64,000 nucleotides of DNA from an uncultured Kiritimatiellota bacterium (GCA_944389545.1 CALXMT010000004.1:8201-72200); one strand, 5' to 3'. Numbered from the stretch's first letter, positions 25,872 to 31,859 are shown. Notes: generated by a model not told the origin, from the letters alone. Numbers and translations: made by a program.

Positions 25872-25978
25872 ACCGCAAAGACGGTCTTGCGTGGAAACCC
25901 GGCAGGCTCCATCGCTCCCGTTGGTCGCGCCGCCCTAGGGATTTCCACGCTATCGCGCCCCTGAAGGGGCGCTCAAAG
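25872..25978 (+). repeat. Left copy of the 107-bp direct repeat bracketing the methyltransferase/helicase island
   Basis: Aligns base-for-base with 31753-31859, with 5 mismatches by eye. It contains GCGTGGAAA...TTTCCACGC and GCGCCCC-TGAA-GGGGCGC inverted repeats. Confidence 0.9.
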
Positions 25979-26247: not shown

Positions 26248-26301
26248 ATGGGCACGCCACGGGTGAGCCGTGGTACCACTTACGCTTAGCGTAACAAAGT
26301 T

Positions 26302-26424
26302 GCTTCTATAGAAACCTGAGAAACTTCTTGTGAGTAAGCAACGTGTTAGGCGAAGCGTGCCGTTATTGGCACGCTTCCCTTTTGCGTGTTTACTCACGGG
26401 CTTTCTCAGGGCCTCTATAGAAGC
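26302..26424 (+). other. Nested ~120-nt palindrome, either a structured leader RNA or a DNA cruciform
   Basis: Outer arms: GCTTCTATAGAAACCTGAGAAA pairing with TTTCTCAGGGCCTCTATAGAAGC. Middle arms: GTGAGTAA pairing with TTACTCAC. Inner arms: GAAGCGTGCC-GTTATT-GGCACGCTTC. Confidence 0.8.
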
Positions 26425-26447
26425 ACGCAAAGGGAGCGTGCTTTTTT
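26423..26447 (+). terminator. Terminator-like hairpin abutting the methyltransferase start codon
   Basis: Stem GCACGC, loop AAAGGGA, stem GCGTGC, then TTTTTT, then the ATG at 26448. The only Shine-Dalgarno-like sequence (AGGGAG) sits in the loop. Confidence 0.55.
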
Positions 26448-28436
26448 ATGTCCAATGCGGACGAACGAGAAGAAATAGTCCAAGAGAGGCCGGTCCTCTG
26501 CGACCCGATTCGGGAACTGCAGGAGGCCGCGCCGCAGGTGTTGTCGATTCTGCTGAAGGATCGCACGGAGAATCGTAATATTCTCTTTGCCACCGATGCC
26601 TATGCCGAGAAGCCGGGGTGCGGCCCGCAGGATTCGATGAAGGTGGAGCATTTCCGTGGGGGCAACGCGCTCTCCATTCGCCCTCGTGCGGCCAAAAGCG
26701 CCCTCGAGCAACGCGAGCGCACGCGGCAGATGGCGGAGGTGTTCACGCCCACCTGGCTCTGCAACGTCATGAACAACGTGTTGGACGAAGTGTGGTTCGG
26801 CCAGTCGGAGGTCTTCACGGTCATCGAAAGGGCGCAGACGTGGTCGGCCACGGAGCAGGTCTCCTTTGAGCCGGCGGAACGGTGGCGGGACTATGTGGCC
26901 TCGCGACGGATGGAAATCACCTGCGGCGAGGCGCCCTTCCTCGCATCGCGTTACGACACCACCACGGGCGAACCCATCCTGCCCCTCAAGCGGCGCATTG
27001 GCCTGCTGGACCGCAAGCTCCGCGTGGTGGATGAAAACGCCGCCACGCAGGAGGAATGGGCCGAGTCGGTGCGCCTGGCCTTCCGGAGCATCTATGGCTA
27101 TGAGTTCCAAGGCGACAGCCTCCTCCTCGCGCGCGTAAACCTCTTTATGACCTTTTGGGACCACCATCTGGCGCGCTGGGGCGAACCGCCATCCGAACCC
27201 TTTTCCAAGGAAATCGCCGAGACCATCAGTTGGAACCTCTGGCAAATGGATGGCTTCACCAACCGCCCGCCCTTCACCACCGAACTGGAAGCGCAAGACG
27301 ACCTCTTCGCCGCCCCTGACCCAAACGCTTCTGATCCCTGCCGTATTCGTATCGGCACCAATCCCATTTCTGTGAACAACCTGCAAGGAGACAAGACCAT
27401 GAAGTTCGATTTCATCATCGGCAACCCGCCCTACCAAGTCGAAGGAGAAGGGAAGGGCCGAAACTTTGCCGCCCCCATGTATCACTATTTTATGGACGCG
27501 GCTTATGCACTCTCGGATAAGGTGTTGCTCATCCATCCCGCCCGCTTCCTTTTTGACAATGGGGAGACGCCTGCTGCGTGGAACAAGAAGATGCTTGCCG
27601 ACAAACATTTCAAGGTGGTTGATTACAGTCGTGCAGCCTCTACCTTTTTCCCCGGTAAAATTGTAATCAAAGGTGGCGTTGCCATCACCTATCGTGATGC
27701 CACCAAAGATTTTGGCGCCATTGGGATGTTTATGACTGATGACGAACTGAGGTCTATTAAGCAGAAAGTGTGCGACCATCCCTCGTTTGAAAGCATTATC
27801 AGTATTGTTTTCACGGCTTATGCCTACCATTTCACGGAGGCGTTGTATGTCGACCATCCGGAATTGAAGGGACGCATGAGTAAGGGGCACGACTATGACC
27901 TTAAATCAAACGTGCTGACCCGTTTGCCGGAAATCTTCTTCTCGGAAAAGCCGGAGGATGGGGAGGAATATATTCAAGTTTACGGCAAGAGTGGAAAGGC
28001 GCGCGTGCTTTGTTGGGTTCGTAAAGTGTACGTGAACGAACCGGACAATCTCGCTTTTTGGAAAGTTTTCCTTCCTGGGGCGAATGGTGGTACAAGCTTT
28101 GGTGAAAGACTTGCGGACCCGACCGTCTTTGGACCGTTTGTCGGCGCAACGGAAACTTTTGCGAGCGTTGGTCGATTCAAGACTCAAGCAGAAGCTGAGG
28201 CTTGTCTGAAATACGTCAAGACGAAGTTTGTCCGTGCGATGCGCGATATTCTTAAGGTCACGCAGAACGGTGCTCGAGATGTTTGGGCCTTGGTTCCCCT
28301 GCAGGATTTCACGGAGAAGTCGGATATTGATTGGAGCAAGAGTGTGGCGGAGATTGACCGTCAGCTGTATGTGAAGTATGGCCTGGCGGCGGAAGAGGTG
28401 AAGTTCATTGAGAGCAAAGTGAAGGAGATGCTGTGA
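26448..28436 (+). CDS. N6-adenine DNA methyltransferase (gamma-class, Eco57I-like)
   Basis: 662 aa. Motifs: 'AEVFTPTWLCNVMNN', 'EITCGEAPFLASRYD' (SAM-binding-like) and 'FDFIIGNPPYQ' (catalytic NPPY). A long C-terminal region is a plausible target-recognition domain. Confidence 0.85.
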   Translation: MSNADEREEIVQERPVLCDPIRELQEAAPQVLSILLKDRTENRNILFATDAYAEKPGCGPQDSMKVEHFRGGNALSIRPRAAKSALEQRERTRQMAEVFTPTWLCNVMNNVLDEVWFGQSEVFTVIERAQTWSATEQVSFEPAERWRDYVASRRMEITCGEAPFLASRYDTTTGEPILPLKRRIGLLDRKLRVVDENAATQEEWAESVRLAFRSIYGYEFQGDSLLLARVNLFMTFWDHHLARWGEPPSEPFSKEIAETISWNLWQMDGFTNRPPFTTELEAQDDLFAAPDPNASDPCRIRIGTNPISVNNLQGDKTMKFDFIIGNPPYQVEGEGKGRNFAAPMYHYFMDAAYALSDKVLLIHPARFLFDNGETPAAWNKKMLADKHFKVVDYSRAASTFFPGKIVIKGGVAITYRDATKDFGAIGMFMTDDELRSIKQKVCDHPSFESIISIVFTAYAYHFTEALYVDHPELKGRMSKGHDYDLKSNVLTRLPEIFFSEKPEDGEEYIQVYGKSGKARVLCWVRKVYVNEPDNLAFWKVFLPGANGGTSFGERLADPTVFGPFVGATETFASVGRFKTQAEAEACLKYVKTKFVRAMRDILKVTQNGARDVWALVPLQDFTEKSDIDWSKSVAEIDRQLYVKYGLAAEEVKFIESKVKEML

Positions 28437-31400
28437 TGAAGACGCCGGATTTGCAGAGCTATGCGGTGGTGGAACCGCATATTTACGCCTATCAGACGCC
28501 CGGCGTGCTGAAGCACGAGGGGTGGACGAAGATTGGCGAGGCGCGCACCCAGACGGTTGAGACGCGTATCAAACAGCAGACGTCGACGCCGGGGCTGGAT
28601 TGGAATCTGTCTTGGGCGCGGCCGGCATGGTTCGACAATGGGCAGACGATGCGCGACAAGGCGTTTCACCGCTATTTGGTGACGCAGGGCATCCCGCAGG
28701 AGCGGGACGCGACAACGAAGAAGAAGCGTGAGTGGTTCCAAGTGGAGCCGGATGTGGCGCTGAGGCACTTTGAGACCTTCGCGCACGACGGCGAGGGGCC
28801 AAACCCGGAGCAACAGGAGTATTGGTTGCGCAGGGAACAGGCACTTGCGGTCGCGCAGACGAAGGCCCATTTCGAGGCGGGCGGGGAGAAGTTCCTATGG
28901 AATGCGAAGCCGCGTTTCGGGAAGACGTTGGCGGCGTATGACCTGGTGCGGCAGATGGGCTTGCGCAAGGTGTTGATTCTGACGAACCGTCCGGCGGTGG
29001 CGGATGGCTGGGTGAGGGATTTCGCGCGGTTCATCGGATGGCAGACGGGCCTGCTCTTCGTTTCGGAGAACAAGGCGCTGAAGAGTCAGTTCCCCAAGCA
29101 GGTGCTCTTGTGGCAAGACTATCAGAATCGGCTGATGACGATGGAGGAGGAGCCGTATGGGTTCATTGCCTTTGAGTCGTTGCAGGGGCTGAAGGGGTCG
29201 CGTTACTTCGATGGAGACCACGACAAGCTGAAGTGGATGGCGGAGCTGGAGTGGGACCTGCTGATCATCGACGAGGCCCATGAGGGGGTGGAGACGGAGC
29301 GGACGGACATCGCCATCGACCAACTCCGGCACAAGCATCGTCTGCACCTCTCTGGAACGCCCTTCAAGCAGCTGGCGCGCGGGGACTTCCTGCCAGAGGA
29401 GACCTTCACGTGGAGCTACGTGGATGAGCAGGAGACGAAGGCGGCCTGGACCGGGGAAGAGAACAATCCCTATGAGCATCTGCCAAGCCTGAAGATGTTC
29501 ACCTATCGGCTGTCGGAAATGACGGAAGCGGAGGTGCGCAGAGGGTATAACGAGGATATTCCCTATGCCTTTGACCTGATGGAGTTCTTCAAGACGAGGG
29601 CGAATGGGACGTTCGTCTATGAAGAGAAGGTGCGAAACTTCCTGCGGGCGTTGACGACGCAGGAGAAGTATCCCTTCTCGACGCCGGAGCTGCGCGAGGA
29701 ACTGCGCCACACCATCTGGGTGCTGAACCGCGTGGCGAGTGTGAAGGCGCTGGAAAAGCTCTTGAAGGAGGAGGGAAGCCCCTTCGCGGATTATGAAGTC
29801 GTCATCGCCGCGGGCGACGGAAGGTCGGGGGATGAGGCGGACGAGGACGATCGGCCCATTTCGCTGAACGCGTTGGGGCGCGTGCGCAATGCCATCGCGA
29901 GCGGGAAACCGACCATCACGCTCTCGGTGGGGCAATTGACGGTGGGCGTGACAGTGCCGGAGTGGACGGGCATCCTGATGCTGAATGAGTGCAAGAGCCC
30001 GGCGGCCTACTTTCAGGCGACCTTCCGCGTGCAGAACCCGCGTGAGTTTGAGCGCGACCACCGGCTCTACATCAAGCGCGAGGCCTACGTCTTTGACTTC
30101 AATCCCACGCGAACGCTGATTCTCTTCGAGCAATTGGCGAACGAGACGGTGCCGGTGCTGGAGACGGAGGGGGAGTCGCCCGTTGAGCGCCGCGAGAAGA
30201 AGATTCGCAAGTTGCTGAACTTCTATCCCGTGATTGGCGAGGACGAGGGCGGGCAGATGGTGCCGTTGGACGTGGCCAAAGTGCTCTCCATCCCGCGCAA
30301 GCTGAAGTGCCAGGAGGTGGTGCGCCATGGCTTCATGTCCAACCTGCTCCTCTGCAACATCAATCGTATCTTCTCGAACTTGAAGATTTATGAGGGCATC
30401 ATCAATGCCATGACCGGCGCCAAGGACTTCGCCGGCAAGAAGAAGCCGATGGAGGACTTGGAGCTGACGGAGCATACGTTGGATGACGAAGGGAACGTGG
30501 TGGTGCCCGAGGAGAAGGTGTTGGGCACGGCCAAGGACCTCTTCGGCGAAAAGATCTATGGCGTGGAGATTGCCCTGCCGGAGACCCGCGTCGGCGAGGA
30601 GGATATGACCACGGCGAAGTTCATGGAGGCCATGATTGCGCAGGTGAAGACGGAGATCGTGGACAAAGCCACGCAAGACCTGAAGCCCGCGGCTCGCAAT
30701 GCCATCGAGCGCACGGTGAAGCGGGAGATGGAGGGCATCGAGACCGCCATCGCGCATGAATGCAAACTTGCGGTGGCCGAGGCGACGTTGAAACACGCAA
30801 CGGCCTTGGAGGCGACGTCGGACGAGGCGGAGCGCGAGGACTTGGAGCGCCGCCATCAGGAAGAGGTGGCGGCCATCAAGGCGGATTATGGCGAAAAGAT
30901 GGTGACGGCAACGCAACAGTATGTGCAGACCTTGCCGGTGGAGGTGACGCGACAAGCGCTCACCGCCCAAGAAGAAGCCGTGAAGAAGGCGGATGAGGAT
31001 GCCATGCATGAGCGTCTGCGCGGGTTCGCCCGAGCCATCCCCAGCTTCATCATGGCGTATGGCGACAAGCACCTGCGACTCGCGAACTTTGACCAATACG
31101 TGGAGGAAGACGTCTTTCAGGATGTGACGGGCATCACGCTGGAGGCCTTCCGCTTCCTGCGCGACGGCGGCGATTACGCCGGTTGCCACGCGGAGGGCGG
31201 CATCTTCAACGAGCAGATTTTCGATGAGTCCATCCAAGAGTTTCTCCGGAAGAAAGAGGCCTTGGCGGATTACTTCGACAAGGCCCACGATGAGGATATC
31301 TTCGACTACATCCCGCCGCAGAGGACCAATCAAATCTTCACGCCGCGCGAGGTCGTTGTGCGGATGGTGGACACGTTGGAGCGGGAGAACCCTGGGTGCT

Positions 31401-31720
31401 TCGACAACCCCGACCACACCTTCGCCGACCTCTACGTGAAGTCGGGGCTCTACCTCGCGGAAATCGCCAAGCGCCTCTTCCGTAGCGCGGCGATGAAGGC
31501 GCGTTTCCCGGAGGATAGTGCACGGCTGGAGCACATCTTTACGCGTCAACTCTACGCCATGGCCCCCACGAAGATTATCCATCGCATTGCGGTGGCCTAC
31601 TTGTTGGACTTCAATCCCGCCCTGCGCGAGAAGGCGAAGGCCCACATCGTCTGCGCCGATGCCGCTGCCGCCGCCCAGTCCGGCACGTTGGATAAACTGG
31701 TGGAAGAATCCTTCGGCTGA
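28433..31720 (+). CDS. Large SF2 (DEAH) helicase with an N-terminal GIY-YIG/T5orf172-like domain and a C-terminal degenerate methyltransferase-like segment; putative restriction/defence partner
   Basis: 1095 aa. The N-terminus 'HIYAYQTPG...GWTKIGEA...ETRIKQQ...REWFQV' is T5orf172-like. Helicase motifs are 'NAKPRFGKTLAAY', 'LLIIDEAHEG' and 'LHLSGTPF'. The C-terminus 'NQIFTPREVVVRMVDTL...FADLYVKSGLYLAEI' looks like methyltransferase motifs X and I but lacks the glycine-rich loop. The start overlaps the methyltransferase stop. Confidence 0.75.
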   Translation: MMKTPDLQSYAVVEPHIYAYQTPGVLKHEGWTKIGEARTQTVETRIKQQTSTPGLDWNLSWARPAWFDNGQTMRDKAFHRYLVTQGIPQERDATTKKKREWFQVEPDVALRHFETFAHDGEGPNPEQQEYWLRREQALAVAQTKAHFEAGGEKFLWNAKPRFGKTLAAYDLVRQMGLRKVLILTNRPAVADGWVRDFARFIGWQTGLLFVSENKALKSQFPKQVLLWQDYQNRLMTMEEEPYGFIAFESLQGLKGSRYFDGDHDKLKWMAELEWDLLIIDEAHEGVETERTDIAIDQLRHKHRLHLSGTPFKQLARGDFLPEETFTWSYVDEQETKAAWTGEENNPYEHLPSLKMFTYRLSEMTEAEVRRGYNEDIPYAFDLMEFFKTRANGTFVYEEKVRNFLRALTTQEKYPFSTPELREELRHTIWVLNRVASVKALEKLLKEEGSPFADYEVVIAAGDGRSGDEADEDDRPISLNALGRVRNAIASGKPTITLSVGQLTVGVTVPEWTGILMLNECKSPAAYFQATFRVQNPREFERDHRLYIKREAYVFDFNPTRTLILFEQLANETVPVLETEGESPVERREKKIRKLLNFYPVIGEDEGGQMVPLDVAKVLSIPRKLKCQEVVRHGFMSNLLLCNINRIFSNLKIYEGIINAMTGAKDFAGKKKPMEDLELTEHTLDDEGNVVVPEEKVLGTAKDLFGEKIYGVEIALPETRVGEEDMTTAKFMEAMIAQVKTEIVDKATQDLKPAARNAIERTVKREMEGIETAIAHECKLAVAEATLKHATALEATSDEAEREDLERRHQEEVAAIKADYGEKMVTATQQYVQTLPVEVTRQALTAQEEAVKKADEDAMHERLRGFARAIPSFIMAYGDKHLRLANFDQYVEEDVFQDVTGITLEAFRFLRDGGDYAGCHAEGGIFNEQIFDESIQEFLRKKEALADYFDKAHDEDIFDYIPPQRTNQIFTPREVVVRMVDTLERENPGCFDNPDHTFADLYVKSGLYLAEIAKRLFRSAAMKARFPEDSARLEHIFTRQLYAMAPTKIIHRIAVAYLLDFNPALREKAKAHIVCADAAAAAQSGTLDKLVEESFG

Positions 31721-31752: not shown

Positions 31753-31859
31753 ACCGCGAAGACGGTCTTGCGTGGAAACCCGGCGGGCTCCATCGCTCCC
31801 ATCGGTCGCGCCGCCCTTGGGATTTCCACGCTATCGCGCCCCTGAAGGGGCGCTCAAAG
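31753..31859 (+). repeat. Right copy of the 107-bp direct repeat
   Basis: Matches 25872-25978. Confidence 0.9.

Follow-up and report, generated by a model that had tools for sequence, protein, structure and literature searches.

The 64,000-nucleotide stretch of DNA analysed here (the window) comes from an uncultured Kiritimatiellota bacterium (GCA_944389545.1 CALXMT010000004.1:8201-72200) and carries two overlapping genes on its plus strand that probably encode an ATP-dependent restriction-modification module. Gene 1 (positions 26448..28436) encodes P0001, an adenine methyltransferase of 662 amino acids, and gene 2 (28433..31720) encodes P0002, a nuclease-motor subunit of 1095 residues if translation starts at GTG 28433 or, likelier, of 1094 residues if it starts at ATG 28436. 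An earlier reading of the DNA made without database searches (the sequence-only reading) had placed an NPPY methyltransferase gene upstream of the large gene, and both open reading frames were found at the coordinates claimed. The translational coupling that it proposed is also supported, because the TGA stop codon of gene 1 (28434-28436) overlaps both candidate start codons of gene 2. A Shine-Dalgarno (SD) sequence, AAGGAG, is located at 28423-28428, 7 nt upstream of ATG 28436, and the closest homologues of P0002 are 1094 residues long. ATG 28436 is therefore the probable start of gene 2. The system at this locus is intact, and both of its genes are whole.

The motif order of P0001 is that of a gamma-class N6-adenine methyltransferase: motif X (EVFTP, residues 97-101), a variant of motif I (EITCGEAPFL, 156-165), motif II (YGYE, 216-219), motif III (QMDG, 266-269), and motif IV (GNPPY, 325-329). 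All five motifs are invariant in 47 homologues. Approximately 330 residues follow GNPPY, as in the gamma-class layout with a C-terminal target-recognition domain (TRD). The protein matches the Pfam family Eco57I (8e-18) and two MTase_II models of PADLOC, PDLC03390 (2e-78) and PDLC03375. Structures of P0001 and P0002 were predicted with AlphaFold2 (AF2) from 47-sequence alignments. The model of P0001 has a predicted local distance difference test (pLDDT) score of 83 and a predicted template modelling (pTM) score of 0.77. Foldseek comparison with the Protein Data Bank (PDB) matched it to the methylase-TRD parts of PglX, CamA, M.BseCI, BpuSI, LlaBIII, MmeI, and DrdV, of which the BREX methylase PglX is the best match. 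Sequence searches of solved structures returned nothing useful for P0001 or P0002, and NCBIfam contains no family for either protein.

The N-terminal part of P0002 (residues 1-125; 28433..28807) is a putative nuclease domain of the T5orf172 family from the GIY-YIG clan, as the sequence-only reading had suggested. The Pfam T5orf172 profile matches residues 16-111 with 23 bits when all of P0002 is scored and 27 bits when the domain is scored by itself, both above the cut-off of 20, and MUG113, from the same clan, also matches the domain. Y18, G30, K33, G35, D75, and E100 are invariant among 20 diverse relatives, and R45 and H79 are at least 90% conserved. The signature of the T5orf172 branch of the GIY-YIG superfamily, which consists of a tyrosine in strand 1, [YK]-I-G in strand 2, an arginine in helix 1, and later a histidine and a glutamate, can thus be assigned to Y18, K33-I-G35, R45, H79, and E100. 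T5orf172 proteins include proven nucleases such as ICP1 Odn (PMC8263062).

The putative nuclease is followed by a two-lobe ATPase motor of helicase superfamily 2 (SF2), ResIII/Snf2-like, which spans residues ~126-640 (28808..30352) and matches the Pfam families ResIII (1e-11) and SNF2-rel (4e-5). Its motifs GKT (163-165), DEAH (280-283), SGTP (307-310), and Q528/R532 are intact and invariant in the 47 homologues, which confirms the DEAH motor recognized in the sequence-only reading. The long helical middle region noted in the same reading is present in the AF2 model, whose secondary structure outlines a coupler-like segment at residues ~641-930 (30353..31222) with very long helices at 727-876. 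With values of 0.39-0.59, the conservation of this region is the lowest in P0002. The model of the complete protein has a pLDDT of 80, and its best Foldseek matches in the PDB are the Type ISP enzymes LlaBIII (4xqk; E 1e-12 over ~1047 columns) and LlaGI (5ffj), followed by the motors Snf2, ISWI, and Chd1, as well as SauUSI and ZorD. The putative nuclease residues and the ATPase motifs vary little or not at all among distant relatives, so that P0002 is likely to be a working nuclease-motor.

The last 165 residues of P0002 (931-1095; 31223..31720) form a tail, which we call N2. The sequence-only reading had quoted two strings from it, IFTPREVVVRMVDTL (967-981) and FADLYVKSGLYLAEI (997-1011), both of which are present, and had described the tail as a degenerate segment that mimics motifs X and I of a methyltransferase but lacks the glycines that bind S-adenosylmethionine. 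The absence of glycines is not so simple. Motif X of N2 reads QIFTPR and motif I reads FADLYVKSGLY; the tail has no G-x-G loop, but its motif I belongs to a family-wide variant, K-S-G-(L/M)-(Y/F), with an invariant glycine, Gly1005. In the AF2 model, the tail is composed of a helix, strand 1 (997-999), a helix, strand 2 (1040-1044), a helix, strand 3 (1072-1074), and additional helices, with pLDDT values of 85-93. In this high-confidence prediction, the motif-X helix leads into strands 1-3 of a methylase fold of the Rossmann type.

Comparison with relatives shows how this half-fold is completed. Ninety full-length proteins were selected from the 150 best representatives of clusters formed at 50% identity. 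In 48 of the 90, N2 continues within ~10 residues into MKFD..GNPPY and a C-terminal region, and the other 42 end after the tail. P0002 itself ends with ...ESFG, exactly at the junction where the fused proteins read FG-x3-MKFD. One relative from the same genus has N2 and the NPPY half as an ordinary separate methylase with the motif DPCSKSGVFL. Since relatives run the tail straight into the NPPY/TRD half, the tail is interpreted as the front half of a methylase fold (strands 1-3), homologous to that of the relatives, and the proposed mimic or decayed copy is not borne out.

The same comparison divides P0001. Because the fused relatives carry N2 contiguous with the NPPY half, P0001 is taken to consist of a front half of the methylase fold with motifs X, I, II, and III (N1; residues 29-285; 26532..27302), a linker, and a module C (residues 318-662; 27399..28436), which contains strands 4-7 with GNPPY and the C-terminal target-recognition region. 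The C-terminus of the fused protein from Enterococcus faecalis plasmid pL8 (1456 residues) is 44% identical to P0001 residues 314-658. In other loci, N1 is a free-standing protein of 226-321 residues, and in 13 loci C is a separate protein of 340-397 residues. A divergent variant, N1', has the canonical motifs HGEVFTP, LEPACGDGNFL, YGIDL, and GNTL, stops just short of motif IV, and matches positions 23-120 of Pfam N6_Mtase. The sequence-only reading had regarded the upstream gene as the true methyltransferase. That gene is separate and carries both NPPY and EVFTP, as described, but it is itself a fusion of a second front half with a movable back half. The view that N1 and N2 are homologous front halves is based on the order of their motifs, on their secondary structure as predicted, and on the fact that they are contiguous with C, and profile similarity does not contribute to it: no Pfam family matches the isolated N1 and N2 segments, even at E = 10.

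The family is large and widespread. Among 8000 candidates scored, 7621 and 6350 homologues with E <= 1e-3 were found for the two proteins, and full-length homologues number in the thousands for each; the relatives form 2515 clusters at 50% identity, and their source names include "restriction endonuclease" and "DEAD/DEAH box helicase family protein". When prokaryotic genomes were scanned, one for each species, at least 591 encoded relatives were identified among the 600 pattern matches listed, and the best 80 of these belong to Bacillota, Actinomycetota, Bacteroidota, Planctomycetota, Chloroflexota, and Pseudomonadota, mostly organisms of the gut, rumen, and mouth. Cultured carriers include Faecalibacterium prausnitzii ATCC 27768, Collinsella aerofaciens ATCC 25986, Dialister succinatiphilus YIT 11850, Streptococcus mitis, S. 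infantis, and Limosilactobacillus albertensis. The fused relatives are single chains of 1300-1560 residues with the order nuclease, motor, helical region, methylase, and TRD. Relatives occur on small plasmids of lactic acid bacteria with toxin-antitoxin genes, and beside McrBC genes, MmeI-like genes, insertion sequence (IS) elements, and resolvases.

Relatives are present in 85 plasmid records, of which 45 are conjugative or mobilisable, and some loci lie beside relaxase or resolvase genes. The module could thus serve the establishment of mobile elements or anti-restriction, with the methylase and helicase protecting the DNA of an incoming element. However, the remaining 40 plasmids are non-mobilisable, many copies of the system are positioned between housekeeping genes with no element genes nearby, and a conserved nuclease domain would be unexpected in such a role, which makes this explanation highly improbable. 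On the mobilisable E. faecalis plasmid pL8 (locus L007, 1-4000), the fused form is located a few kilobases from optrA, ant(9)-Ia, and erm(A), and many Enterococcus plasmids carry very similar copies.

Every informative locus contains two front halves, N1 and N2, and one back half, C, in one of five arrangements. Form A, [N1-C][GIY-motor-helical-N2], is that of the window and of 41 of the 60 genome loci in which both N1 and C were detected. In form B1, [N1][GIY-motor-helical-N2-C], C is fused to the motor protein (Pediococcus pRS5, E. faecalis pL8, and loci L012, L022, L104, L106, and L020). Form B2 has the same fusion with N1 downstream (L009 and L105). Form C, [N1'][N2-C][GIY-motor], was found in two loci of the same genus as the window (L019 and L021), and form D, [N1 or N1'][C][GIY-motor-helical-N2], in 13 clean cases. 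N1 or N1' is present in 11 of 11 informative loci of forms B and C. An apparent absence of N1 from form C was rejected after a 226-residue N1' gene was found to overlap the start of the methylase gene there. The assumption that all splits between N1 and C represent clean modules was rejected in part, as 13 of the 23 loci with separate frames are clean and 10 are due to frameshifts or insertions.

Several loci have additional features. In L037 (2889-3898), L039 (1967-3932), and L101 (3446-3952), 0.5-2 kb of extra DNA separates the N1 and C genes. In L105 (4655-5656), the fused nuclease-motor-methylase gene and the N1' gene that follows it are separated by a gene for 333 residues with a faint DUF2971 match. 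Locus L020 (3871-8977), on the same contig ~36 kb past the window end, is a second, diverged system of the fused kind in the same genome; it encodes a 307-residue N1, which is 48% identical to the N1 of P0001, and a nuclease-motor-N2-C protein of 1390 residues. The two co-resident systems could be exchanging modules.

In a maximum-likelihood tree of the helicase domains of 90 representatives, parsimony assigns 11 changes between C attached to and C detached from N2, at least 6 of them on well-supported branches. The fused forms are basal, and forms A and B occur as sister pairs with support of 98-99. The N2|C joint has therefore been opened and closed repeatedly, or has been exchanged by recombination between co-resident systems. 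Because the joint changed repeatedly, N2 and C are likely to work together whether or not they are linked.

It could be argued that the system is a restriction-modification system in which N2 is only a leftover of gene fission, N1-C is self-sufficient, and the motor docks elsewhere, for example, through the helical region. N1-C alone folds into a confident methylase-like AF2 model, N2 has neither the acidic residue of motif II nor the G-x-G loop, and the motor protein of form C does not contain N2, yet must work with its methylase. However, N2 is the most conserved part of P0002 across phyla, with mean column conservation of 0.79-0.87 and 25 invariant positions between T970 and Y1056. The KSG(L/M)(Y/F) motif is kept in 86 representatives of all forms, including those with contiguous N2-C. 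The repeated movement of C on and off N2, and the encoding or probable production of free C, would be senseless if N2 were a dead remnant. This origin of N2 is distinctly unlikely, and we retain N2 as a functional front half.

In form A, N2 could obtain C from gene 1, which contains a candidate start site for it. An internal SD sequence, AAGGAG (27385-27390), lies 8 nt upstream of ATG 27399, the codon of Met318, which opens MKFDFIIGNPPY; together, these elements (27385..27401, plus strand) could direct synthesis of a free C half of 345 residues. Without exception, the 41 fused N1-C loci have ATG at the Met318 codon. In 21 of them, it is preceded at positions -5 to -14 by a strict SD core, compared with 8% of background windows in the same genes, and G-runs upstream of the internal ATG were counted in nine more loci. 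The copies with neither element are those of Prevotellaceae, which have A-rich upstream sequence instead, as is usual for start sites in their phylum. At the protein level, the equivalent of Met318 is methionine in 101 of 101 N1-C proteins and in 28 of 45 N2-C fusions, where the others have mostly V, L, or I (Fisher p = 1.7e-10, with relatedness ignored). Nine of 10 form B loci have ATG, GTG, or TTG at this codon, but the conserved FG[ED] peptide confounds the SD-like sequence there. Because the N1-C gene has a conserved internal ATG with an SD sequence, free C is probably made from gene 1 in addition to the full-length protein.

Inactivation of the methylase is frequent in the family. The motor gene is intact in 60 of 60 loci checked, but the methylase is broken in 10 of 64 genome-collection loci, which represent 7 independent events. 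Four Collinsella assemblies, including C. aerofaciens ATCC 25986 (L071, 3890-3990), share the same C5-to-C4 slip inside the GNPPY codons. In Dialister succinatiphilus YIT 11850 (L047, 3730-4010), an insert of ~230 nt separates the Gly and Asn codons of GNPPY. The remaining breakages among the 10 loci are other frameshifts; frameshifts also occur in L002 and L003, and an IS256 insertion is present in Bifidobacterium longum plasmid p1. By contrast, the methylase is whole in the cultured carriers F. prausnitzii ATCC 27768, S. mitis S61, and Acutalibacter caecimuris M00118, and L. albertensis Lr3000 has a clean N1'|C split. Loss of the methylase would be lethal in classical Type II systems, whereas it is expected where the restriction subunit needs the methylase or TRD to find DNA, as in Types I, III, and ISP. 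Such frequent breakage of the methylase beside an intact motor gene makes it probable that C is required for cutting.

The module is most similar to the Type ISP enzymes LlaGI and LlaBIII (5ffj, 4xqk; PMC3553950, PMC2790908), with which it shares the order nuclease, SF2 motor, coupler, gamma-class N6-adenine methylase, and TRD if P0001 and P0002 are considered jointly or the fused relatives are taken instead. Like the relatives described here, Type ISP enzymes are plasmid-borne in lactic acid bacteria. Type ISP enzymes use ATP to translocate away from their site and cleave when they collide head-on. However, Type ISP enzymes are single polypeptides, whereas the system in the window is encoded by two genes, and even the fused relatives have a separate N1 gene. 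The N-terminal nuclease of Type ISP is an Mrr-type PD-(D/E)xK domain, in place of which P0002 has the T5orf172/MUG113 domain. The methylase fold is split here at the boundary of strands 3 and 4, the helical arm is much longer, and the second front half, N1, which is always present, has no counterpart in Type ISP. Sequence similarity to the solved Type ISP chains is not detectable. The split Type ISP-like enzyme proposed in the sequence-only reading is thus supported by the Foldseek matches, the order in fused relatives, and the connection of the tail to the methylase, but the two chains and the lack of an Mrr-type nuclease set the system apart from Type ISP proper. Previous papers mention that MmeI and Type ISP enzymes have relatives, as yet uncharacterised, in which helicases and GIY-YIG nucleases occur (PMC2731913, PMC3553950).

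Other restriction-modification types agree less well. Type III systems such as EcoP15I Mod and Res similarly have two genes with the methylase first, a motor-nuclease that depends on the methylase, and tolerance of methylase loss. However, Mod is a beta-class methylase with an internal TRD, whereas P0001 has the gamma order and a C-terminal TRD, and Res has a C-terminal PD-ExK nuclease and no methylase half, whereas the GIY-YIG domain of P0002 is N-terminal. Type I systems combine HsdS with HsdM and HsdR; no HsdS gene is present in the islet, and no Type I model of PADLOC matches P0001 or P0002. Type IIG/IIL enzymes (MmeI, BpuSI, DrdV) have a related methylase-TRD fold, and the PADLOC model for the fused relatives is named REase_MTase_IIG. 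Lacking an ATPase motor, these enzymes cut at a fixed distance with a PD-ExK nuclease and without ATP, whereas the system described here has an intact SF2 motor and no MmeI-family Pfam domains, and is thus Type IIG in PADLOC name only.

Naturally split methyltransferases, for example, M.AquI and M.EcoHK31I, fold as two assembling polypeptides, but they are C5-cytosine enzymes with one partner per half, whereas here one back half has two alternative front halves, one of which is tethered to a nuclease-motor. The sequence-only reading had left the system unclassified. The family is, however, already catalogued, as REBASE-derived models of PADLOC map to its individual pieces: PDLC03390 corresponds to N1, PDLC03375 to C, and PDLC03626 (REase_MTase_IIG, 1359 positions) to form B, with its best match in pRS5 (1e-117) and a weak match to P0002.

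The nearest studied analogue is DnmA(YeeA)-YeeB-YeeC of Bacillus subtilis, whose operon encodes the same three activities, an adenine methylase with a TRD, an SF2 helicase, and a T5orf172/GIY-YIG domain, and for which a helicase-dependent restriction function was predicted in 2009 (PMC2731913, PMC7261158, PMC9973331). DnmA is a complete, MmeI-like methylase, whereas P0001 has no MmeI-family Pfam match. The helicase and T5orf172 domain are in separate proteins, the latter at the C-terminus of YeeC, whereas in P0002 the T5orf172 domain is fused to the N-terminus of the helicase. No half-methylase modules have been described for DnmA-YeeB-YeeC, which, judged from the descriptions, sets the present family apart from it.

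The analogue does raise the question of whether the module cuts DNA. DnmA-YeeB-YeeC did not restrict three phages or transformation (PMC9973331), although homologues from Vibrio crassostreae affected phage sensitivity, as cited in the same study. The module could instead impose a BREX-like, methylation-linked block of replication, or it could be an epigenetic methylase with a helicase partner whose role in defence has been lost, as proposed for DnmA-YeeB-YeeC. The structural proximity of P0001 to PglX is compatible with such activities, as are the frequent inactivation of the methylase with the partner gene kept and a recognition region that is not hypervariable. However, distant relatives keep the putative nuclease residues Y18, K33-x-G35, R45, H79, and E100 and all ATPase motifs unchanged or almost unchanged, and the plasmid and island contexts, together with a very broad horizontal distribution, agree with selfish or defensive restriction-modification. 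No PADLOC match with E <= 0.1 was found in either protein to markers of BREX (PglZ, BrxC), DISARM (DrmA, DrmB), or Hma (HmaA-C), and none was present among the neighbours scanned with Pfam. A function that does not involve cleavage is therefore unlikely.

The evidence together makes it likely that the two genes encode an ATP-dependent restriction-modification module that follows the logic of Type ISP, with a GIY-YIG-type nuclease and a methylase in three pieces. From the architecture we infer how it could operate. N1·C would methylate the host's own sites. The product of gene 2 would be the restriction subunit, comprising the T5orf172/GIY-YIG nuclease, the SF2 double-strand DNA translocase, the helical coupler, and N2. 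N2 would capture C in trans and so complete the fold, which in the fused relatives is complete in cis, and the conserved internal start at ATG 27399 would supply the free C. The captured C would become the DNA-reading head of the motor-nuclease, and at an unmethylated target site the complex would consume ATP, translocate, and cut. Because one C/TRD would serve both enzymes, modification and restriction would always have the same specificity. We propose more tentatively, as a possibility that may well prove wrong, that C is shared by the two front halves, forming the modification enzyme with N1, the more canonical of the two, and, with the deviant N2, a restriction head that reads the site and its methylation state and does not methylate.

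Several observations weigh against this interpretation. The match to T5orf172 is modest, comparison of a nuclease-domain profile with solved structures detected no GIY-YIG structure by sequence and only a spurious match to Mfa2, and one endonuclease of the T5orf172 family has reportedly been domesticated for tuning gene expression. N2 lacks the acidic motif-II residue that N1 keeps, and hhalign aligns N1 with N2 over motif X only, with a probability of 58%. Codons rich in Gly/Glu partly confound the SD-like sequence upstream of Met318. Column conservation of the recognition region is 0.53-0.78, which is unusual for a family with many specificities; the region could serve few specificities, or specificity could be set by few residues, as in MmeI. 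The frequent loss of the methylase with an intact motor may also mean that something else makes the motor protein harmless. The nearest studied analogue showed no restriction, and a literature search found no description of the family or of a half-methylase partner, and no experiment on any member.

The region upstream of gene 1 contains a conserved, structured leader RNA (26298..26448, plus strand), which ends at the gene 1 ATG and was modelled by covariance model R1. The leader is composed of a long hairpin of seven helices followed by a terminator-like hairpin (GCACGC...GCGTGC and T6), which encloses the AAGGGAG ribosome-binding site. Of 87 sources, 10 have a match to model R1 immediately before the first gene: the window, L020, the same-genus form C loci, and six Prevotellaceae loci. 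Within the genus, the leader thus precedes three different gene arrangements. Paired cells make up 89.8% of the alignment, both partners change in 28 of the 39 pairs, and the covariation is 0.633, compared with at most 0.156 when the partners are slid. Because of the compensatory changes and the many G-U pairs on the sense strand, the element is interpreted as an RNA and not as a DNA palindrome. The leader does not attain the gathering score of any Rfam family, and the matches below the threshold are chance ones. The leader is possibly an attenuator that controls the establishment of the system.

The two genes form an islet with a GC content of 55-61%, compared with 62-73% in flanking 2-kb windows, and the upstream neighbour, on the opposite strand, is rpoD. 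Outside the system, the islet is flanked by two copies of a 107-nt repeat, with no strand assigned, at 25872..25978 (left) and 31753..31859 (right, 95% identical to the left copy). These direct repeats were considered as marks of insertion, that is, as att sites or a target duplication, but this was rejected, because the repeat is dispersed in at least 40 intergenic copies in the genome of the window and in at least 36 in one congener. It was not found in 11 other relatives searched. The low-GC islet and the neighbours of the relatives are typical of the settings of defence and mobile islands.

The family is catalogued yet uncharacterised. The relatives provide a natural experiment in cutting an enzyme fold in two, in which a single methylase back half functions with one front half or the other. 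If the exchange of C between N1 and N2 takes place, it would represent a new way of coupling modification and restriction. Half-domain exchange, set by the fusion and the internal start, would balance self-marking against attack, and identical specificity would be guaranteed, so that the role of HsdS in Type I would be played within a single protein fold. Programmable methylases or nucleases driven by ATP might be built from the swappable C/TRD cassette. Judged from the PADLOC model matches, defence-annotation tools are likely to score the split form as a Type II methylase only, because the fit of the motor protein to the fused model is weak. The family is among the commonest unstudied helicase-linked restriction-modification types of gut, rumen, and oral bacteria, and understanding it may help to explain the barriers to gene transfer in gut commensals.

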